The notes beneath the pieces were generated by a model. It did not search any database. It was given only the letters and a program-made list of their open reading frames with translations, and was not told where the DNA came from. A stretch of 64,000 bases of DNA from Escherichia coli (GTDB lineage Bacteria; Pseudomonadota; Gammaproteobacteria; Enterobacterales; Enterobacteriaceae): assembly GCF_024700885.2 (NCBI RefSeq), contig NZ_CP117016.1. The stretch is one strand, 5' to 3'. The position numbers and the translations under genes were made by a program. Shown one piece after another: positions 9,504-55,442 of the stretch; positions within the stretch are counted from its first letter, which is position 1; each line of letters opens with the position of its first letter.

Positions 9504-9842
9504 TAAGGAGCATTAAGGCTGTGATGAAAAAGAAAAAGTTGTATTGAAAATGACTATTTAAGAGATAGGTAAAAAAGTGCAGCGTTCAGAAATAAGAAAA
9601 CCCTAAGTCTGTGCGACACAGGCTTAAGGGTTTCTACCCCATCCGGCGCTTATCTCCGGCACTCTCAGTGGCTTAGCTCTTGAAGGGGCGATAAGAATAA
9701 TCTCATAAAGCTAACCCGCCGTTTTAACACAAACTGCGATTAGTATTATTTTTGAACAATATCAGGCGGGTAGATAAGCACATCGAACCTGGACGGAGGT
9801 TAATCCAGGTCGATTTGGCGAAATTACGGCATTAAGTCAGGA

Positions 9843-13982: not shown

Positions 13983-15095
13983 ATGGTAAATGTTCGTCAG
14001 CCCAGGGATGTCGCACAAATTCTGCTTTCGGTGCTCTTTTTAGCCATCATGATTGTGGCATGTCTGTGGATTGTACAACCCTTTATTCTCGGCTTTGCAT
14101 GGGCTGGTACGGTGGTTATCGCCACCTGGCCGGTATTGTTACGTTTGCAAAAGATCATGTTTGGTCGCCGCTCTCTCGCCGTTCTGGTGATGACGCTGTT
14201 ATTAGTGATGGTGTTTATCATCCCTATTGCTTTGCTGGTTAACAGTATCGTCGACGGCAGCGGCCCGCTAATTAAAGCCATTTCCAGCGGTGACATGACG
14301 TTACCCGATCTGGCGTGGCTTAATACCATTCCGGTGATTGGCGCGAAGCTATATGCAGGCTGGCACAACTTGCTGGATATGGGGGGGACGGCGATCATGG
14401 CGAAAGTCCGCCCTTATATTGGCACCACCACCACCTGGTTCGTTGGGCAAGCGGCGCATATCGGGCGCTTTATGGTGCATTGTGCGCTGATGCTTCTCTT
14501 CAGTGCCCTGCTGTACTGGCGCGGTGAACAGGTGGCACAAGGCATTCGCCATTTTGCAACCCGTCTGGCAGGCGTTCGCGGTGATGCCGCCGTGCTGCTG
14601 GCGGCACAGGCTATCCGCGCGGTGGCGCTGGGTGTGGTGGTGACGGCGTTAGTACAGGCAGTGCTTGGCGGTATCGGCCTCGCCGTATCCGGCGTACCTT
14701 ATGCAACGTTGCTAACGGTGTTAATGATCCTCTCCTGCCTTGTCCAGCTTGGACCGTTGCCGGTACTGATTCCGGCGATTATCTGGCTCTACTGGACCGG
14801 CGATACCACCTGGGGAACGGTATTATTAGTGTGGAGCGGTGTGGTTGGCACGCTGGATAACGTCATCCGCCCAATGTTAATTCGCATGGGTGCCGATTTA
14901 CCGCTGATCCTGATCCTCTCTGGCGTTATTGGTGGTTTGATTGCTTTCGGGATGATCGGTCTGTTTATTGGTCCGGTTCTGTTAGCCGTTTCCTGGCGTC
15001 TTTTTGCCGCGTGGGTGGAAGAGGTCCCACCGCCGACTGACCAACCGGAAGAAGTTCTCGAAGAACTTGGCGAAATCGAGAAACCGAATAAGTAA
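13983..15095 (+). CDS. ydiK: AI-2E/PerM-family inner membrane transporter
   Basis: 370-aa multi-TM ORF; K-12 synteny. Confidence 0.85.
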   Translation: MVNVRQPRDVAQILLSVLFLAIMIVACLWIVQPFILGFAWAGTVVIATWPVLLRLQKIMFGRRSLAVLVMTLLLVMVFIIPIALLVNSIVDGSGPLIKAISSGDMTLPDLAWLNTIPVIGAKLYAGWHNLLDMGGTAIMAKVRPYIGTTTTWFVGQAAHIGRFMVHCALMLLFSALLYWRGEQVAQGIRHFATRLAGVRGDAAVLLAAQAIRAVALGVVVTALVQAVLGGIGLAVSGVPYATLLTVLMILSCLVQLGPLPVLIPAIIWLYWTGDTTWGTVLLVWSGVVGTLDNVIRPMLIRMGADLPLILILSGVIGGLIAFGMIGLFIGPVLLAVSWRLFAAWVEEVPPPTDQPEEVLEELGEIEKPNK

Positions 15096-15128: not shown

Positions 15129-15280
15129 AACCCCTGCTAATTGATATTTGCTTGCTCTTCCCCATATTTTCCTGCTTACCGCCATTCAGCTGGTAGTACC
15201 TGTCGCAAATTCTTTACAGTTTTTAAACTAATGAGACGAATCTGATCGACGCAAAAAGTCCGTATGCCTACTATTAGCTC

Positions 15281-15386
15281 ACGGTTATAAATCAACATAT
15301 TGATTTATAAGCATGGAAATCCCCTGAGTGAAACAACGAATTGCTGTGTGTAGTCTTTGCCCATCTCCCACGATGGGCTTTTTTTT
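15281..15386 (+). ncRNA. rprA: RprA small regulatory RNA (activator of rpoS translation)
   Basis: Matches the recalled RprA sequence ACGGUUAUAAAUCAACAUAUUGAUUUAUAAGCAUGGAAAUCCCCUGAGUGAAACAACGAAUUGCUGUGUGUAGUCUUUGCCCAUCUCCCACGAUGGGCUUUUUUU, including its terminator; lies between ydiK and ydiL as in K-12. Confidence 0.9.
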
Positions 15387-15523
15387 AACATTTTTCCGCT
15401 TCGCTACCTCGCCCCTCACGCTTTCCAATAATGTTGCACAAGATACTGTGACTCTCTTCAAGCCGTCAGCAGGCTGATAATGTTATTTATATTTTATTGT
15501 TTATTTCATGCAGCCATTACACG

Positions 15524-15880
15524 ATGAACGCTTATGAACTCCAGGCTCTTCGCCATATTTTTGCCATGACTATTGATGAATGCGCGACCTGGATTGCCCA
15601 GACCGATGACAGTGAAAGCTGGCGTCAATGGGAAAATGGCAAATGCGCCATTCCTGATTATGTAGTCGAGCAACTGTTGGCTATGCGTCAGCAACGAAAA
15701 AAACATCTTCATGCCATCATAGAGAAAATAAATAACCGCATCGGCAACAACACCATGCGTTTTTTCCCCGACTTAACCGCGTTTCAACAAGTCTACCCTG
15801 ATGGCAATTTTATTGACTGGAAGATCTATCAATCGGTAGCCGCTGAATTATATGCACACGATCTGGAGCGCCTTTGTTAA
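15524..15880 (+). CDS. ydiL: uncharacterised protein YdiL
   Basis: 118-aa product from MNAYELQALRH; K-12 synteny. Confidence 0.75.
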   Translation: MNAYELQALRHIFAMTIDECATWIAQTDDSESWRQWENGKCAIPDYVVEQLLAMRQQRKKHLHAIIEKINNRIGNNTMRFFPDLTAFQQVYPDGNFIDWKIYQSVAAELYAHDLERLC

Positions 15881-41069: not shown

Positions 41070-42047
41070 TTAAGCACCTCCTAGTGGATTAAACCTCACC
41101 GCATCCTGCAGGTAATCCGGCGCAAGATGGGCATAAATCATCGTTGTCTGAATCTTTGCGTGCCCCAGAATTTTCTGGAGCGTGAGAATATTGCCACCGT
41201 TCATCATGAAATGACTGGCGAAGGTGTGGCGCAGCGCATGAACAGCCTGGCCGTCAGGAACATCAGGTGCGACCGTTTTGATGACATCGCGAACCAATGA
41301 ATAATCCAGCGTCGGAAACACCAGTTTCCCGCCCCGTTTTTTGATCTTTTCAAACAGGCTTTCAGAAATAGGAACGGTACGGTTTTTGCTGTTCTTCGTT
41401 TTTGAAAAAGTGATTCGACAATGAAGAACACGGCGCTGCTCCAGTACCGCTACCTCGCCCCATCGCGCCCCGGTCGACAGAAGGATTTCGACAGCCAGCC
41501 GTTCATCGGGATTTTCAGCCAGTGCATCCAGCAACTGAACACATTCAGACTTACTCAGATATCCCATTTCGCGCTCGTTAACCTTCATTCCTTTAAGGCC
41601 TTGAACGGGGTTATCGTTAAGAAAATGGCCGGATGAGATGAGTGCGGTAAACATCGCGCTTAACGCCCCAATCTCTCGATTTATGGTGCTGGGCTGTATC
41701 CCCTGCTCTATCCTGGACACACGTAGCTCGGTGAGCATCGTTGTATTAAGTCTATGCACGCACGGGTCATCCATTGCCTCACTCAAGCGCAGCAATTTAA
41801 GGCGCGTGTTATGCCCTGACTTCATTAGCTGGCCGTGGTATTTCCACCACAAGTCAATAAGCACTGACAGAGGACGGCGATCAATAGAGTTTCCTTTCCA
41901 CTCATTGTTATGCTGTTGCGCCAGCACCCACCGCTCATATAAAACTGCATCCGATTTCGTTTTAAATTTTTTGCGAATGCGTTTGCCTTTACGCCCCTCA
42001 GGGCGCATGTCAAGAAGATACCCTCCCGGAATTGATTTTATGCTCAT
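41070..42047 (-). CDS. int: P2-type tyrosine integrase
   Basis: From MSIKSIPGGY, about 45-50% identical by eye to recalled P2 Int (RPTGRNGKRIRRKF..., LSTGARWGEA, HALRH.F, LGH...TM.YAH). ORF-track start trimmed by 50 codons. Confidence 0.85.
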   Translation of the reverse strand: MSIKSIPGGYLLDMRPEGRKGKRIRKKFKTKSDAVLYERWVLAQQHNNEWKGNSIDRRPLSVLIDLWWKYHGQLMKSGHNTRLKLLRLSEAMDDPCVHRLNTTMLTELRVSRIEQGIQPSTINREIGALSAMFTALISSGHFLNDNPVQGLKGMKVNEREMGYLSKSECVQLLDALAENPDERLAVEILLSTGARWGEVAVLEQRRVLHCRITFSKTKNSKNRTVPISESLFEKIKKRGGKLVFPTLDYSLVRDVIKTVAPDVPDGQAVHALRHTFASHFMMNGGNILTLQKILGHAKIQTTMIYAHLAPDYLQDAVRFNPLGGA

Positions 42048-44400: not shown

Positions 44401-44790
44401 ATGATTGACGCTCATGACTTCACAAGATGGGTGCGCACACAGGACACCCGTCTGGCTCCCATTCTTCGGGGATTATTTGATCTCTACATTCGTGGTCGTG
44501 ACAACAGAGCACGCACCACAAAACCGGAGAATGTGGATACCCTTTATTTCACAGTAGACGACTGCTACCGCGTGGACTTCACACCACACGGACTGGCGTT
44601 GCACTGCCTGACACCGCACGGCGAATCACTGCTGGCGTATTACGACTCCCCGGCCTCCGTATTTGCGGCAATGCTGGCGCATCGCACTGCTGGCGGGTGT
44701 GCCTCGCTGAGTGAATACACCGCTGAGTTTAACCGCCTTTCCGCCCTCTTCTCGCAGGAGTGGCAGCGCGTGACGGGATACCAGCCATGA
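44401..44790 (+). CDS. hypothetical phage early protein (P2 B-gene position)
   Basis: 129-aa ORF immediately upstream of and overlapping the A gene start. Confidence 0.5.
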   Translation: MIDAHDFTRWVRTQDTRLAPILRGLFDLYIRGRDNRARTTKPENVDTLYFTVDDCYRVDFTPHGLALHCLTPHGESLLAYYDSPASVFAAMLAHRTAGGCASLSEYTAEFNRLSALFSQEWQRVTGYQP

Positions 44791-47627
44791 GTGAGTTTGC
44801 ATGGAGCTGGAATGAACCACGGCCAGCCATTGATCCGGCCAGATTTACGGAGCGCAGGCAGGAAACTGAAACCGACCTGCAACGCGCCATCCGTTACTAC
44901 CTTGAGGCAGACAAAAAGGCCCAAGAAGAACAGGAAGCGAAAGAGGAAGCCTTTTTCGCACAATCCGCCATGGGTAAAAAACTCATGGCATCCCTTGAGG
45001 AAGCCGGACAGCGTGAAAAGCTGGCACAAAGCATCATCAGTAAGCGCCGGGCAACAGAACAAGACCCGGTGGCCCGTGCCTTTGCCACACTGAAGGTGCT
45101 TCCCGTTTATCTGCGAGAACCCCTGAGCCGCCACCTCTCTTTCCTGCGCAAAAAACAGGAAGCCGATCGCCGGAAAGGCAAAAAGAGCTGGCAGGCGGAA
45201 CGCTATGCACGCGGAACCCTGCGCAAAATATTCGAACGTCTGGATCGCACTGACGGACGCTGGCTGACACAGGGTTATCGCTCCATTGCCGGACGCGAAC
45301 GCCTGGACGATTTGCTTTACCTGCCGCAGCTCAACAAACACCAGGTACAGACACTGGCCACCATGACGGCAGCAATGTTCAGTAGCACATTCGAAAAACT
45401 CTGCGATGGCTTTGGCGCGACCGATGGTGAGCTGACCATGGATGTAACGCTGAAGGCGTATCAGATGCTGGCCCGCATGGCGTTACATCTGCACGCCATG
45501 CCTCCACATTATGACGCACTGACAACAGATAGAGATCGGAGGAACGAACCGGACACAGAGCTGCTGCCAGGCGCAATCCTTCGCCTGACCTGTGCTGAAT
45601 GGTGGAAACGCAAACTGTGGCTATTACGTTGCGAGTGGAGAGAAGAACAACTCCGCGCCGCCTGTCTGGTTTCCAGAAAAACATCGCCCTATCTGAGCCA
45701 GGACGCGTTAAGCGAGTTTCGCGCACAGCGCGAGAAAACACGCGATTTCCTGAAAGGTTTCATGCTGGAAAACGAAGACGGGTTCACGATTGATCTCGAG
45801 ACAGTGTATTACGCGGGAGTAAGTAACCCGGTTCACCGTAAGGCAGAAATGATGGCCACCATGAAGGGGCTGGAACTTCTGGCCGAGGCCCGTGGTGACA
45901 AAGCGGTGTTTCTGACTGTCACCTGCCCGTCAAAATACCACGCCACAACAGAGAACGGTCATCCGAATCCCAAATGGAACGGGGCCACCATGCGCGACTC
46001 CAGCGATTACCTGGTTAACACGTTTTTTGCGGCGGTCCGCAAAAAACTGAACCGCGACGGTCTGCGCTGGTATGGCATCCGCACGGTGGAGCCTCACCAT
46101 GACGGCACCGTGCACTGGCATATGATGGTCTTTGCTCATCCGGAAGAAATCGACAGCATCGTGGCCATCACCCGCGATATTGCCATTCAGGAAGACCGCC
46201 ACGAGCTGGGCAATGATATTACTCCGCGCTTTAAGGTGGAGTATGTCGACGGCTCAAAAGGCACACCAACCAGCTATATCGCGACCTACATCGGAAAAAA
46301 CCTGGACAGCCGCGCCGTGGATGGCATCGACCCGAAAACGGGCAAACCACGCGTTGACCACGAAACAGGTAAATCAATGGCCGAGAGCGTGGAGCGCGCC
46401 ATCGGCTGGGCGCGCCTTCACCGGGTCCGCCAGTTCCAGTTCTTTGGCATCCCCTCCCGTCAGGTGTGGCGTGAACTGCGCCGCCTTGCCAGCCAGATGG
46501 CACGCAACCCGGAAGGCCCGCAACGGCTGAAGGATGACGCAATGGATGCGGTACTCGCTGCCGCTGATGCCGGGTGTTTTGCCTCCTACATTGAAAAACA
46601 GGGTGGCGTACTTGTTCCACGCAAGGACTACCTGATTCGCACCGCCTACGACCTCGCAGATGAGCTGAACGATTACGGCGAACAGAGCGTACAGATTTAC
46701 GGGATCTGGTCACCACTCATCGGGGAATCCTCCCGTGTGTGCACGCACCCGGATAACTGGAAGCTGGTAAGACGTAAACCGGAAGCGGAAGACAGCACCC
46801 GCGAAAATGATTTTGACCTTCAGGGCGGCCCTGCCGCCCCTTGGACTCGTGGCAATAACTGTCCCCGTGTACAGGAAACAGACAACAACGGGACAGAACA
46901 GCCGGAAGAACGGCCAGCACCGTGGCCGCAGCTCCCTGACGGCGTTGAAGTGAACGAATGGATGCATTCACTGAAACGGCACGAACGCCGGGCGCTGATG
47001 CGTTCGCTTCGTGACAAACAGGCAAAAAACAGCAGCGATGAAATGCAGAACTGGACACAGAGCCGCAAACAGCCACAGCCTTTACCTGATAACCACGAGT
47101 TACTCGCTAAAGAATGGCGGGAGTCTGCTGAATCTCTCGGCCTGCATATTGGTGAACAGCAGATGCAGCACCTGTTACGGGGCGGCAGTCTGTACGTTGA
47201 CGGCAGCATCATTGCACCGCAGGGATTTGAAATTGTACGCAAACCGGATACCCGCCCGGACAGCCGAATCACGCAGCTCTGGCAACGCCTGAGCCGTAAT
47301 CACGGCGTAAGCAGCACGGAGATCCGCCATAACCCGGTCGCCAGCTATCTGGAACAGCTGGGGGCATCAGACCCTGAAGCCGCCGCACGCCTGGCATCCA
47401 CACTTCAGCAAGACCAGAACACCATGAAAACCCCCGTTACCGTGCTTTCTGACATGCTGCGCGCCATCCGTGACGCAGAGCACGCACAGAGAATCAGTGA
47501 AACCACTGAACGCGCCCACCGCAAAGCAGACCTGCTGCGGGGTAGCCTGACCAGTGGAAACAAAAAACAGACAGAAACGGGACTCACAAATCCCGTAAAT
47601 GAGCAAAAAACGTGCCGCGATATATGA
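44787..47627 (+). CDS. P2 gpA-type rolling-circle replication initiator with long C-terminal extension
   Basis: 946 aa from MSEFAWSWNEP; HUH-type motif VHWHMMVFAH and downstream Tyr-containing region (YIATYIGKN) typical of P2/186 A proteins; last 200 aa or so is low-complexity. Confidence 0.8.
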   Translation: MSEFAWSWNEPRPAIDPARFTERRQETETDLQRAIRYYLEADKKAQEEQEAKEEAFFAQSAMGKKLMASLEEAGQREKLAQSIISKRRATEQDPVARAFATLKVLPVYLREPLSRHLSFLRKKQEADRRKGKKSWQAERYARGTLRKIFERLDRTDGRWLTQGYRSIAGRERLDDLLYLPQLNKHQVQTLATMTAAMFSSTFEKLCDGFGATDGELTMDVTLKAYQMLARMALHLHAMPPHYDALTTDRDRRNEPDTELLPGAILRLTCAEWWKRKLWLLRCEWREEQLRAACLVSRKTSPYLSQDALSEFRAQREKTRDFLKGFMLENEDGFTIDLETVYYAGVSNPVHRKAEMMATMKGLELLAEARGDKAVFLTVTCPSKYHATTENGHPNPKWNGATMRDSSDYLVNTFFAAVRKKLNRDGLRWYGIRTVEPHHDGTVHWHMMVFAHPEEIDSIVAITRDIAIQEDRHELGNDITPRFKVEYVDGSKGTPTSYIATYIGKNLDSRAVDGIDPKTGKPRVDHETGKSMAESVERAIGWARLHRVRQFQFFGIPSRQVWRELRRLASQMARNPEGPQRLKDDAMDAVLAAADAGCFASYIEKQGGVLVPRKDYLIRTAYDLADELNDYGEQSVQIYGIWSPLIGESSRVCTHPDNWKLVRRKPEAEDSTRENDFDLQGGPAAPWTRGNNCPRVQETDNNGTEQPEERPAPWPQLPDGVEVNEWMHSLKRHERRALMRSLRDKQAKNSSDEMQNWTQSRKQPQPLPDNHELLAKEWRESAESLGLHIGEQQMQHLLRGGSLYVDGSIIAPQGFEIVRKPDTRPDSRITQLWQRLSRNHGVSSTEIRHNPVASYLEQLGASDPEAAARLASTLQQDQNTMKTPVTVLSDMLRAIRDAEHAQRISETTERAHRKADLLRGSLTSGNKKQTETGLTNPVNEQKTCRDI

Positions 47628-50577: not shown

Positions 50578-51624
50578 TCAGGATGTGGGCTGGGTGTCTA
50601 ACAGTGCGTAAGGGTTAAAGCGAATCACCTCTTCGCCAAGCCAGTCATTGATGTGCTTCATGGCCTCCATGACGGGCATCAGCTCGTTAATTGCGTAAAC
50701 CCGCGCGGCCTTCTCCACATCACCAAACGCACTTTTTTCGCCTGGCATCGCCCCCATCAGTTGCGGCGGAACGCGGTGCGCAGCCAGCACATCATCACGG
50801 GATGCCACCTTAACATTCATGAACTCATCCTTTGCGGTGATCTGCTGGAACGGCAAAATTTGCACCCCCTCTTTGCCACCGTTGGGCGCATGAATGAGCA
50901 CGTTTTTAAACGCACCACCACCACGTGCACCCTGTAGCGTTTCTTTCAGGGAGTCCATGCTTTCGCGGTTTACCTGCGCTGCACCGATGTAGATGATGCA
51001 CCCGGCGTGGGATCCGTTGTCGTAATACAGTTTTCTGAACATGTCCGCCGAATGAGACAGGCTGGCCGAGAGTAATGCGCCGAGATATTCCGGCATGCCG
51101 TAGATTTCCTGGTTAATGTCAGGATTCATCAGGTGGCACACTTTGCCAGGGCGAAACTGAAACGCGTCCTTGCCATCCTGCACATACCACCATGATTCAA
51201 GATCGCTTCCGCGTCGCATGTATTTCGCCAGGGCGTGCCGTAATTTAAGCGGTTCGCCGAGCATATTGCTTCGAAGCTCAAGGAATGCGTTACCGAACAC
51301 AAACCAGTCCAGCGCCAGCGCCGAGAAATCCTGCCGGGAAAGCAACGGGTGCGGGATGTAGCAACCGAGTAATACATTGCGCTTAAAGTAAAGCGCAGAC
51401 TGATGCCAGGACGTTTGCCGGGCAGCTCTTGCCAGACCGTACCAGTCCACCGGGGTTTCATACCACCGCCCGTTATCAGCACAGTACATATTGTCCAGCA
51501 GGTCATGCCCGGTCAGGCGATAAGGACCATCAAATGTGAATGCACTGAGCGATGATTCTTTCCTGAGCGCATCAGCGAGATCAATGCGTGAACTCATGCG
51601 CACTTTTTTATTTTTTCTACTCAT
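50578..51624 (-). CDS. portal protein (P2 gpQ-like)
   Basis: 348 aa; position and orientation as P2 Q; stop overlaps the terminase start. Confidence 0.8.
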   Translation of the reverse strand: MSRKNKKVRMSSRIDLADALRKESSLSAFTFDGPYRLTGHDLLDNMYCADNGRWYETPVDWYGLARAARQTSWHQSALYFKRNVLLGCYIPHPLLSRQDFSALALDWFVFGNAFLELRSNMLGEPLKLRHALAKYMRRGSDLESWWYVQDGKDAFQFRPGKVCHLMNPDINQEIYGMPEYLGALLSASLSHSADMFRKLYYDNGSHAGCIIYIGAAQVNRESMDSLKETLQGARGGGAFKNVLIHAPNGGKEGVQILPFQQITAKDEFMNVKVASRDDVLAAHRVPPQLMGAMPGEKSAFGDVEKAARVYAINELMPVMEAMKHINDWLGEEVIRFNPYALLDTQPTS

Positions 51625-53375
51625 CAGAACTCCATAACCGTGAAACGCTCGTTTTCTCCTTCGCCGCCAATTGGTTCGTTAATGACAGCAAGCATGGTTG
51701 CCCACGCAAGGTCGCCGTGGCTGATCCCCCTCGCGCGGTCCGTTTCGTAAGTGATAAAGCCGCCCGGTGTTTTCACCTTACGCACGGCGTTAAAGGCCGC
51801 GACCAGCTCGCGTTCGGCGCGATCGTATTCCCACCGCCCGGCACGCATTATTTGCAGCATTTTCAGTACCAGCGACCGTTTTGATGACAGCGTGAAGGTG
51901 TACGGAATAGCGGCAGGGAAAAACCGTTTCACTATCTGATAAACAGCCTCCCCGTTCCCGCCCGTCACATCAATGCCGATGTGTTCCACGTTGTAGCGAC
52001 ACGTGAACTCTTCAATGACTCTGGCCTGTTCTTCAAACTCCAGCCCCTGAACGCGTCGCGTCTCCACCGTTCGAAAACGGCCACCAGGAACAGACGGAGG
52101 AACCACCACGGACACAGCGCCGCTGTCGCCGTTGCCACTGCTGCCGTTTGCGTCATACCCAATCCATACCGGACGATTCCCCATCGGGCGGGGAGCAAAA
52201 GGTTTCCAGTCTTTCCAGTCGTCGTATCCGTCAACACCGCAGCCAATCAGGATATTCAGGTTAAATGCCGATTCCCCTTCGCGGACAAACTCACACATAT
52301 AGAGATTGAGGAACTCGTCTTCGGTGTTTTCATCACGAATTTCGTCGATATCGGTGTGTTCCCAGCCGTGATTAACCACATCTTCCAGCGTGACAATTTG
52401 CCGCCACGTCCGGTCAGGGCAGATAAGCCCGTTATGCAGCGTTTTCCAGTCCACAGAAAAACGCTGGCGTTTATGCGTGGCCTTTTTCTCGTTCCAGCGG
52501 TCGCCGTTCCAGTAGGCGTATGCCTCGTGCGTTTCGGTGGATGGCGTGGAGAAGTAGGTGCGCCGCAGTCCGCTGAGGGTTGCCATAGCGCCAGCCACCT
52601 TGCGCAGTTCAGCAAAGCGACTGACCCAGAAAAATTCATCAAAATAAAAATTGCCCGTATAGGACTGTGCCGACGCAGCAGAAGTGCCGAGAAAATGCAG
52701 CTCTGCGCCGTTGGAGAGGATGATTTTATCGCCCCCTTTCAGCTCCACATCAACTTCAGCCGCGGCCTTCTGAATAATGCTTTTAAACTGGAACGCCTGA
52801 CGACGCGACGCAGACAAAAAAATCTGGTTACGCTGGTAAGGTTGCGCCACATCGTCACGCAGCGCCATCAGCAGCGCTTCCTGTGCAAAATACCAGGTCG
52901 CCCCAATCTGTCGGGATTTCAGGATCATCCTGTTACGTATCCCTGCTTCCCTGCAAAGGGTCAGGGAGTCAAACCAGCCCCGCTGATGCCACTCCAGCCT
53001 GCTGATGATTTTTTCCCGCAGTGCGGCAATCTGTTCCGGCGTGAAATGATTTTTAAGCTTTTTCGCCCGGCCTTTCTTTCCTGTGGCCGTCGCATCCGGC
53101 TGGCCATCATGCAGTTTTTTAAGCTGCCGGGTCAGCAGGTCTATTTCCTTGAAGTCACCACCTGTTTTATTCTGTTTTTCAGTGAGCTGGATGAGGCGCG
53201 CATCGATGGACTGCGTGACACGCTGCACGGGTGGCGTTTCATCCCACTGGTCGCGTTTTTTCCACGCATAAATCGTGTTCGGGTTTATTCCCATCAGACG
53301 TGATATTTCTGCGGGCGGATAACCCTGCCAGTAAAGTTGCCGCGCACGCTGGCGCACAAAAGCGTCCTGAATCAT
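51624..53375 (-). CDS. terminase large (ATPase) subunit (P2 gpP-like)
   Basis: 583 aa; P2 late-operon synteny, divergent from O-N-M-L. Confidence 0.8.
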   Translation of the reverse strand: MIQDAFVRQRARQLYWQGYPPAEISRLMGINPNTIYAWKKRDQWDETPPVQRVTQSIDARLIQLTEKQNKTGGDFKEIDLLTRQLKKLHDGQPDATATGKKGRAKKLKNHFTPEQIAALREKIISRLEWHQRGWFDSLTLCREAGIRNRMILKSRQIGATWYFAQEALLMALRDDVAQPYQRNQIFLSASRRQAFQFKSIIQKAAAEVDVELKGGDKIILSNGAELHFLGTSAASAQSYTGNFYFDEFFWVSRFAELRKVAGAMATLSGLRRTYFSTPSTETHEAYAYWNGDRWNEKKATHKRQRFSVDWKTLHNGLICPDRTWRQIVTLEDVVNHGWEHTDIDEIRDENTEDEFLNLYMCEFVREGESAFNLNILIGCGVDGYDDWKDWKPFAPRPMGNRPVWIGYDANGSSGNGDSGAVSVVVPPSVPGGRFRTVETRRVQGLEFEEQARVIEEFTCRYNVEHIGIDVTGGNGEAVYQIVKRFFPAAIPYTFTLSSKRSLVLKMLQIMRAGRWEYDRAERELVAAFNAVRKVKTPGGFITYETDRARGISHGDLAWATMLAVINEPIGGEGENERFTVMEF

Positions 53376-53529
53376 TGCTCCCCCTGAGTAATTACAGGAA
53401 GATTACCCGCGCGCGAAACTGTTCTCCTTAACCCCCTGTTCTGGCCGTTTTCTTACAACAAAAGCCCTTTGTATCAGCCTGTTACGCTTTGCCATCATGA
53501 CTGAAGAACCAGTCAGAGGGGCAAAAACT

Positions 53530-54366
53530 ATGGCTAATGAAAAAAAGACATCCCGCAAAAAGTTTCGCGTGGCTGTCTCCGGTGTAACGGCAGACGGGCG
53601 CGAAATCAACGGCGACATGCTGAAAGCTGCCGCCACCAGTTATAACCCGTCCGTTTATGGTGCACGTGTGAATATTGAGCACATCCTGTCACCACTCCCC
53701 GGTAGCGAGTTTTCCGCTATGGGCGATGTTGTGGGGTTGAGCACCGAAGACATAACCGATGGCCCGCTGGCAGGCCGCACGGCACTGTATGCCGAAATTG
53801 AGCCGACCGCTCGCATGATGTCCCTGCTTAACGATGGTAAAAAAATTTACTCCAGTATTGAGCTGGAACCACAGTCAACCATCACGGGAGGCCCTTACCT
53901 GCGCGGGCTGGCAATGACCGACACCCCTGCCAGCCTGGGCACGGAACGTCTGGCCTTTGCGGCACAACAACGTATGCAACTGATGACATTCAACTGTCAG
54001 CAGGGAGACGTGGCGATGTTTACCGCCGCTATGGAGTCAGAACTTATCGAACTCACCGAACAACGTCAGGAAGAAGGCACCCAGTGGTTTAACCGCGTTA
54101 TGGGGATTATTGGCCGTGGCCGCAAAGCGGATGACGCCAGTTTCTCCCGTATTCAGGAAGCGGTGGAAGGTGTCGCAACGTCACAGGCCGACATTATCGA
54201 CCGTTTTAATGCGCTGGAAACCCGCCATCAGCAGGACAGCCAGAAAATCACTTTACTGACCACAGAGCTGACAGCACTGAAGGAAAAACTGCGCACGCAG
54301 GACGGCGATCCGCAGAACCGGTTCACCGCAACGGGCGCAGCCTCCGATCAACTGGCTGACTTCTGA
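53530..54366 (+). CDS. capsid scaffolding protein (P2 gpO-like)
   Basis: From MANEKKTSRKKFRVAVSGVTADGREI; resembles recalled P2 gpO (FRIGVEGDTCDGRVI…LAVTDDPASLGTE…). Confidence 0.8.
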   Translation: MANEKKTSRKKFRVAVSGVTADGREINGDMLKAAATSYNPSVYGARVNIEHILSPLPGSEFSAMGDVVGLSTEDITDGPLAGRTALYAEIEPTARMMSLLNDGKKIYSSIELEPQSTITGGPYLRGLAMTDTPASLGTERLAFAAQQRMQLMTFNCQQGDVAMFTAAMESELIELTEQRQEEGTQWFNRVMGIIGRGRKADDASFSRIQEAVEGVATSQADIIDRFNALETRHQQDSQKITLLTTELTALKEKLRTQDGDPQNRFTATGAASDQLADF

Positions 54367-54389
54367 TAAGACAAAGGAGCAAATTTTTT

Positions 54390-55442
54390 ATGAATCTGGT
54401 GATGTCAGATATTACCCGCAACAAGCTGGGTTGCTATATGGCGCAGCAGGCGTCGCTTAACAACATCCCGGTATCTGCACTGGTATCGCGATTTACCGTG
54501 GAACCCTCGGTGCAGCAGCGTTTTGAAAACGCAGTAAAGGAGAGCACTGAATTTACAAAAAAAATTAACGTGTTCGGTGTGACCGACCAGAAAGGCGAAA
54601 AAATCCTCCTGGACACCACCGGGCCGATTGCGCGCACGAATACCAGTTATGACGGCACAAAACGCCGTAACCCGAATAACGTGGTTGATCTGAAAAACCG
54701 CAAATATCAGTGCGAACAGGTGAACTACGACACGTTTATTTCGTATCCGCAGCTTGATGCCTGGGCGGCACACCCTGATTTTCAGTCACGCGTCAGCACA
54801 CAGATTGCCCGGCAGGTGGCGCTTGACCGCATCATGATCGGTTTCAACGGCACGTCTCACGCAGATGAGTCCAACTTCAGCACCAACAAGCTGCTTCAGG
54901 ACGTTAACGTGGGATGGCTGGAGCACATCAGAACCGACGCCAGCGAGCGCGTAATGAATGACGTGACGCTGACCTCCCGCAACATGGACAACACCGTGGC
55001 GCACGCGGGTAAGTATGCGAACGCTGATGCACTGGTACAGGACGCGCGCTCATCCCTGCTGGATGAATGGCACAAGGAAGCTGACGACCTCGTGGTGATT
55101 ATGGGGCGCAACCTGTTTAACTCGCTGCGTCTGCCCGTGCTGAACAGCATCAGCGGCCAGAATCCCAATGCGGAATTACTTGCCGGACAGCTCATCCTGT
55201 CATCGCGCGCCATTGGCGGACTGGATGTATTCCTTGCGCCGTTCTTCCCGGATTCAACGATGCTGATCACCTCGTTCAACAACCTGTCGATTTACTGGCA
55301 GAAAGGAACAATGCGTCGCCTGATGAAAGACGAGCCGGAATACAACCGCATCGCCACCTACCAGTCCATCAATGACGCTTATGTCGTTGAAGACTATGGC
55401 AAGTGCGCGATGGTCACTGGCCTGAAGTTCGCCGACAGCTAA
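54390..55442 (+). CDS. major capsid protein (P2 gpN-like)
   Basis: 350 aa; collinear motifs with recalled P2 gpN (FTVEPSV, MIGFNG, GWL, YVVEDY). Confidence 0.85.
   Translation: MNLVMSDITRNKLGCYMAQQASLNNIPVSALVSRFTVEPSVQQRFENAVKESTEFTKKINVFGVTDQKGEKILLDTTGPIARTNTSYDGTKRRNPNNVVDLKNRKYQCEQVNYDTFISYPQLDAWAAHPDFQSRVSTQIARQVALDRIMIGFNGTSHADESNFSTNKLLQDVNVGWLEHIRTDASERVMNDVTLTSRNMDNTVAHAGKYANADALVQDARSSLLDEWHKEADDLVVIMGRNLFNSLRLPVLNSISGQNPNAELLAGQLILSSRAIGGLDVFLAPFFPDSTMLITSFNNLSIYWQKGTMRRLMKDEPEYNRIATYQSINDAYVVEDYGKCAMVTGLKFADS

Follow-up and report, generated by a model that had tools for sequence, protein, structure and literature searches.

An intact rprA gene downstream of ydiK in an Escherichia coli chromosome and possible counterparts of its 3′ module in phages and phage-plasmids

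Which gene lies in the spacer between ydiK and ydiL in the 64,000-nt stretch of E. coli DNA analysed here (the window)? An earlier note on this DNA had placed an intact copy of the small RNA RprA at positions 15281-15386. The locus raises the question whether this is the functional gene, a remnant or look-alike of it, a small protein-coding gene or a by-product of the ydiK mRNA. The evidence leaves hardly any room for doubt that 15281-15386 on the plus strand is the chromosomal gene for RprA, the Hfq-dependent sRNA of the Rcs envelope-stress pathway, and nothing in the sequence speaks against this reading. Its likely mechanism is the textbook one. The principal features of the locus are as follows.

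13983..15095, plus strand: ydiK (AI-2E family transporter), a 370-aa ORF, equal to K-12 b1688 by coordinate mapping
15281..15386, plus strand: rprA primary transcript, 106 nt, based on the full-length RF00034 match, K-12 identity and the RefSeq annotation as rprA in E. coli genomes
15420: single substitution relative to K-12 in the rprA-ydiL spacer, 34 nt past the rprA 3′ end and downstream of the terminator, from the K-12 alignment
15524..15880, plus strand: ydiL (DUF1870), the downstream neighbour, equal to K-12 b1689 by coordinate mapping

A covariance-model search, one of the two checks suggested in the earlier note, was run with cmscan over the whole window and returned an Rfam RprA match (RF00034) at 15281-15388 on the plus strand that scores 118.5 bits (gathering score 70; E = 1.6e-16). 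The match covers model positions 1-108 of 108 and is not truncated. The second check, alignment to the K-12 annotation, gave the same picture. The rprA gene of MG1655 (b4431; 1770372..1770477, 106 nt) has annotated ends that map exactly to 15281 and 15386, so that the coordinates given earlier were exact, and 106 of 106 positions are identical, with neither truncation nor divergence inside the gene. The claimed agreement with RprA over the whole length holds up to and including the terminator, whose hairpin and T8 run were also found by a terminator scan. In the alignment of 306 columns around the gene (window 15181-15486), the 100 nt upstream of rprA, promoter included, are likewise identical to K-12, and the sole mismatch is a G in the window for a T in K-12 at 15420. 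This allele of the window is common to many E. coli genomes at 100% identity. The 22-nt RprA seed, ATTGCTGTGTGTAGTCTTTGCC, occurs once in the window, with 0 occurrences expected from shuffles. Given the full-length model score, the K-12 identity and the once-only seed, the match is far beyond chance, and the gene is RprA itself, not a relative.

Only one other RNA, rydB, exceeds the curated Rfam thresholds in the whole 64,000-nt window. This full-length match to RF00118 (81.6 bits, threshold 50) lies at 9629-9689 on the minus strand and, as in K-12, is flanked by sufA and ydiH.

Within the species, the locus belongs to the core genome and is essentially invariant. Of 5426 complete E. coli genomes, 5423 contain the 306-nt query, and their annotation names it rprA. 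The 106-nt gene alone was found at 99% identity or more in 5421 of the 5426, and the 5433 places in 5423 genomes show that E. coli rprA is almost never split. The earlier description of rprA as an ordinary feature is thus borne out. The finding is already known, the window's own rprA holds nothing novel, and an intact copy in an E. coli chromosome brings no new biology when 5421 of 5426 complete genomes have the same sequence. Its value for the window is correct annotation: this is a real, functional-looking RNA gene of a kind that ORF-based annotation passes over, as had been pointed out, and it ties Rcs envelope-stress signalling to σS and to curli and biofilm control.

The gene order around rprA, ydiJ (minus strand), ydiK (plus), rprA (plus), ydiL (plus), ydiM and ydiN, is that of K-12 and of strain 7/2, in agreement with the conserved position claimed for it. 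Window positions 1-40142 are collinear with K-12 1755079-1795235 at 98.1% identity. For comparison beyond E. coli, a cross-species set was collected with an exact 24-nt pattern from the RprA core (GAATTGCTGTGTGTAGTCTTTGCC) and one genome per species, which gave at least 120 loci (L005-L124) in genera from Escherichia to Providencia, Dickeya, Pectobacterium, Erwinia, Pantoea, Serratia and Hafnia. Among the matches listed, 107 of the 108 Enterobacterales loci with enough sequence have a same-strand ydiK homologue upstream of the gene, and ydiL lies downstream of rprA in just 9 of 111, all of them Escherichia or Citrobacter. The claim on position is refined accordingly: across Enterobacterales, the conserved position is the one after ydiK, and ydiL is not part of the anchor.

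Positions 40143-64000 of the window have no counterpart in the K-12 neighbourhood. They represent the integrase-proximal ~24 kb, or two-thirds, of a ~34-kb P2-family prophage between btuC and ihfA. The prophage matches its counterpart in E. coli MLI114 at 100% identity, and 148 of 5426 genomes contain 80% or more of it. Its genes were mapped from the MLI114 annotation.

~41070-42047, minus strand: prophage integrase
~44787-47627: prophage replication endonuclease
~50578-55400: prophage portal, terminase and capsid genes

A further observation concerns plasmid records. In PLSDB, several Klebsiella pneumoniae records of 110-144 kb (H58-H62), typed as non-mobilizable, contain rprA and its promoter (query 42-206, 92.7% identity). 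They are either real plasmids with a captured chromosomal segment or mis-assigned sequences. Other rprA-bearing records labelled as plasmids measure 4-5 Mb and are clearly chromosomes.

Upstream of the transcript, an RcsB-dependent promoter is present as a sequence element, composed of the following parts.

15232..15245, plus strand: RcsB box TGAGACGAATCTGA, −49 to −36 from the transcription start A15281, fitting the published consensus
15246..15251, plus strand: weak −35-like hexamer TCGACG (4/6), read from the sequence, directly abutting the RcsB box and 17 nt upstream of the −10
15269..15274, plus strand: −10 hexamer TACTAT at −12 to −7, read from the sequence

Activation of rprA by RcsB has been reported (PMC3465796), and the consensus of the RcsB homodimer box is TN(G/A)GAN4TC(T/C)NA (PMC7913699). 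A Salmonella PrprA oligonucleotide, CCTATTGAGACGAATCTGATCGG, spanning −33 to −53 from the rprA start, was co-crystallised with RcsB, and the PrprA site is a target verified by crystallography and EMSA (PMC7913699). The box in the window, TGAGACGAATCTGA, is the core of this oligonucleotide, and the 17-mer TGAGACGAATCTGATCG at 15232-15248 is unique in the window. Among the matches listed, 117 of 118 species have a consensus RcsB box in the 200 nt upstream, where the background density predicts 0.027 per 200 nt. The distance from box to core has its mode at 106-107 nt across the species listed and amounts to 106 nt in the window. TACTAT or near variants stand at the equivalent place in most homologues. 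The loose consensus is common by chance (4 matches in the window against 2.4 expected, which is not significant), so that the evidence for the box consists in its position and conservation. One of these matches, TAAGAATAATCTCA at 9692-9705 on the plus strand, comes to within 3 nt of the rydB 5′ end and may be such a chance occurrence.

The assignment of TCGACG as the −35 of rprA is inferential. A generic σ70 scan misses this promoter, which agrees with the consensus at 8 of 12 positions where the cut-off is 9 of 12, and picks out an unrelated TTGATA site at 15141 instead. A score of 8/12 fits an activator-dependent promoter, though it is no positive evidence for one, and the scan result was not used: the promoter was assigned from the published RcsB site and from conservation across species.

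These promoter elements bear directly on the reading that the RNA derives from the ydiK mRNA, as a processed 3′ UTR fragment or read-through product. Many Hfq-dependent sRNAs are indeed 3′-UTR-derived (PMC5222698), and ydiK lies on the same strand only 185 nt upstream and, among the matches listed, accompanies rprA in 107 of 108 species. Against such an origin, the RcsB box and the −10 element keep a fixed distance in 117 of 118 species among the matches listed, and the verified RcsB target lies at −33 to −53 from the rprA start (PMC7913699). Together, the fixed-distance box and the verified site mean that rprA has a dedicated promoter. We therefore consider derivation from ydiK highly improbable, while some read-through from ydiK into rprA may occur.

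Even less credit can be given to the idea of a degenerate or truncated remnant, or a chance look-alike, in place of a functional gene. Nothing was found in favour of this idea. Truncation is possible in principle, and partial copies do occur elsewhere, such as nt 60-106 alone on an E. coli phage-plasmid. The copy in the window, however, matches the RprA model from position 1 to 108, is identical to K-12 at 106 of 106 positions, has its promoter and terminator intact and occupies the normal site after ydiK.

The RprA transcript has a predicted minimum free energy of −25.8 kcal/mol (z = −2.5) and is organised as listed below.

15285..15310, plus strand: long, A/U-rich 5′ hairpin, RprA nt 5-30, from the minimum free energy and centroid folds and from covariation
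15311..15358, plus strand: mostly single-stranded central region with the target-pairing sequences, RprA nt 31-78, unpaired in the centroid structure
15338..15342, plus strand: RNase E site GA|AUU, RprA nt 58-62, predicted cut between 15339 and 15340
15338..15361, plus strand: 24-nt core including the seed of processed RprA, exact in at least 120 Enterobacterales species
15359..15386, plus strand: Rho-independent terminator, consisting of a 7-bp G+C-rich hairpin at 15359-15378 (RprA nt 79-98) and a U8 tail at 15379-15386

No other block of the Rfam consensus is as conserved as the 24-nt core. In Salmonella, Hfq-dependent cleavage of RprA by RNase E at GA|AUU yields a stable species of ~50 nt (PMC5222698). 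The predicted cut at the same motif in the window would leave a 3′ species of 47 nt, matching this documented form. The terminator scan found 7 pairs, 5 of them G-C, and a 6-nt loop followed by T8. In general, sRNAs bind Hfq through a hairpin with a 3′ poly(U) stretch (Ishikawa 2012, as cited in PMC3708529).

The structure could be evaluated by covariation. Transcripts of the cross-species set were delimited from box start + 49 to core end + 25, of which 98 were aligned (97 distinct homologues), and pairs were counted against the structure predicted for the window. Across the 97 homologues, 89.4% of cells were paired, as compared to 33-43% with slid partners. Changes on both sides of a pair were found in 16 pairs versus 8.0 ± 1.5 in shuffles, and 0 of 500 shuffles reached 16. 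In the 5′ hairpin (helices 1 and 2), 8 of 9 outer and 3 of 3 inner pairs showed pairing-keeping changes on both sides. In the terminator (helix 5), 99.3% of cells were paired, with compensatory changes in 3 of 7 pairs. Both the 5′ hairpin and the Rho-independent terminator are thus backed by covariation. Helix 4, which lies inside the core, and the 24-nt core itself are uninformative in this comparison because the loci were chosen on an exact core, which makes them invariant by selection of the sample. Among the matches listed, RprA varies strongly in its 5′ half outside Enterobacteriaceae, and its 3′ half is constant.

That the conserved sequence is a small protein-coding gene, for which one could cite two overlapping mechanical ORFs (15328-15477, plus strand, 49 aa, GTG start; 15285-15461, minus strand, 58 aa, TTG start), can be dismissed as scarcely conceivable, as single-base indels among close homologues (e.g. 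L012, L049 and L111) would break any frame, conservation ends at the terminator and not at the ORF ends with variable sequence between species after the T-run, variation tracks base-pairing instead of codon positions, and neither the K-12 nor the PGAP annotation calls a CDS here.

For the RprA gene, identity, position, promoter elements, structure, covariation and processing motif are established at the level of sequence. Expression, Hfq binding and target regulation in this strain are inferred, because the RNA is completely identical to the studied K-12 RNA and nearly identical to that of Salmonella. The identical K-12 RNA has been published to bind Hfq and to regulate rpoS, csgD and ydaM/dgcM in vivo (PMC3465796; PMC3708529). 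On this basis, an active RcsC/RcsD/RcsB phosphorelay would place an RcsB dimer on the −49 to −36 box beside the weak −35 and thereby switch on the σ70 promoter with its TACTAT element. Transcription from A15281 would end at the hairpin and U8. The resulting 106-nt RNA would have a 5′ hairpin, an open middle and an Hfq-binding 3′ hairpin with U-tail, of which the open middle and the seed would pair with mRNAs. Cleavage by RNase E together with Hfq at GA|AUU (15339/15340) would release a stable 3′ species of ~47 nt beginning with the conserved seed.

Of the targets on which RprA acts, rpoS, csgD and ydaM (PMC3465796), the first would be activated. RprA would pair with the upstream arm of the self-inhibitory leader hairpin of rpoS, so that the ribosome-binding site is freed and σS synthesis increases. 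Activation of rpoS by K-12 RprA goes back to Majdalani 2001 and 2002 (as cited in PMC3465796 and PMC5222698). For csgD and ydaM/dgcM, pairing with the 5′ region would lower translation and mRNA level and thus reduce curli and biofilm matrix. Anti-site II for csgD corresponds to RprA nt 28-45, and anti-sites Ia and Ib lie within nt 60-97 (PMC3465796). By identity, all of these anti-sites are present in the rprA of the window.

Duplex energy was considered as evidence of the rpoS pairing and rejected. The predicted duplex of RprA 32-72 with rpoS −135 to −93 has −32.4 kcal/mol and the site is plausible, but its energy is not distinct from that of shuffled or random sequence, as 59 of 1000 shuffles equalled it, and so did 334 of 1000 pieces drawn at random from the window. 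The energy of the rpoS duplex with full-length RprA was reached by 17 of 500 shuffles. Because duplex energy does not discriminate, the rpoS claim rests on the identity to K-12.

Sequences akin to the 3′ part of RprA also occur on mobile elements. The weakest E. coli match of rprA comprised RprA nt 60-106 only and was located on a P1-like phage-plasmid (Rfam 63.4 bits, below threshold). In Phytobacter massiliensis, contig NZ_HE578945.1 holds an ordinary ydiK-linked rprA (L042) and also a second RprA-like gene (L043 1165-1284, plus strand, Rfam 77.8 bits), which resembles RprA only from about nt 37 onwards. This second gene has no ydiK and no RcsB box and lies ~500 nt from a P1/P7-type C4 antisense RNA (RF01695, 583-671, minus strand).

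BLAST against GenBank phages and plasmids revealed the same module in N4-like Erwinia phages, in temperate E. coli phages of ~42 kb and in replicons of phage-plasmid size (~90 kb), and the 22-nt seed was exact in at least 120 viral contigs of IMG/VR. The loci collected from mobile elements (L127-L132 and L133-L306, from GenBank phages and plasmids and from IMG/VR contigs) have their host counterpart at window 15340-15386. Most mobile copies of the seed are without an RcsB box, and no ydiK was found on the IMG/VR seed contigs among the matches listed, in which the seed stands in 50 distinct upstream contexts. A hairpin and T-run directly follow the seed in 60 of 62 distinct tails, again among the matches listed, and there are 40 different hairpin sequences. 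The module lies near the repressor region in temperate phages of ~40 kb and after thymidylate synthase in N4-like Erwinia phages, and it is also found on P1-like phage-plasmids. The type present in phage 606R2 is found in 156 of 5426 E. coli genomes, where it has no RNA annotation. In phage 606R2, the sequence preceding the module gave no consensus σ70 promoter.

As the IMG/VR set had been chosen by the seed, a second, unbiased sample was drawn via a neighbouring phage protein, phrog_6784. The seed was present in 32 of 40 distinct upstream regions of this sample, exact in 27 and with one mismatch in 5. The eight seedless regions include two with too little upstream sequence and one with a partial match. 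Furthermore, the seed is kept in phrog_6784 relatives whose protein is at 70-76% identity and whose upstream flank cannot be aligned. The exact RprA seed in phages thus appears to be under selection.

A different account of the mobile copies, that they are attP, attL or attR duplicates left by integration into rprA, was considered and rejected for four reasons. The module also occurs in a lytic N4-like phage and in phage-plasmids; in the longer provirus contigs (~27-48 kb), at least ~8-12 kb separate it from the contig ends; it is contiguous in 76 E. coli chromosomes; and, as described above, rprA is hardly ever split in E. coli (5433 places in 5423 genomes). No copy of the seed is present in the P2-family prophage of the window, and no other match was found in the window at up to 3 mismatches.

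Taken with due reserve, it is conceivable, though on balance somewhat doubtful, that the 3′ module of RprA (nt 60-106, window 15340-15386) is the host prototype of a unit of seed and private terminator, one taken up again and again by Enterobacterales phages, prophages and phage-plasmids and kept there under selection. If expressed, the copies would be sRNAs of mobile elements that mimic processed RprA and tap its regulon, with csgD and biofilm formation, rpoS and others, during lysogeny or infection. Phages would then hijack a core stress and biofilm regulon by copying the seed of a host sRNA. In the searchable literature, neither the sequence string nor the term 'RprA-like' led to a description of a phage-borne RprA-seed module.

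Among known systems, the closest is RprA of K-12 (rprA, b4431; RF00034). It shares with the window the same 106 nt, the 100 nt upstream with RcsB box and −10 element, the terminator and the neighbours ydiK and ydiL. There is no difference within the gene; the nearest change is at 15420, and the surrounding 40 kb are 1.9% different.

DsrA and ArcZ are, like RprA, Hfq-dependent sRNA activators of rpoS translation, and the three share one activating pairing site in the rpoS leader (PMC7547250). ArcZ is also processed by RNase E to a 3′ species of ~50 nt (PMC5222698). In contrast, their sequences are unrelated to RprA, they are encoded at other loci, respond to other inducing signals and constitute distinct Rfam families, and control by RcsB is a property of RprA. 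Neither the DsrA nor the ArcZ family had a match in the window in the Rfam scan.

For the modules on mobile elements, StxS is an earlier example of a phage reproducing what the rpoS activators of the host do. This sRNA of Stx phages is processed by RNase E, derives from a terminator and activates rpoS via the RprA/DsrA/ArcZ site as a predicted mimic (PMC7547250). StxS arises from the PR′-tR′ late leader of Stx phages, whereas the modules described here reside in other genomic contexts. Moreover, sequence shared by StxS and RprA is not stated in PMC7547250, whereas these modules carry the literal 22-nt RprA seed.
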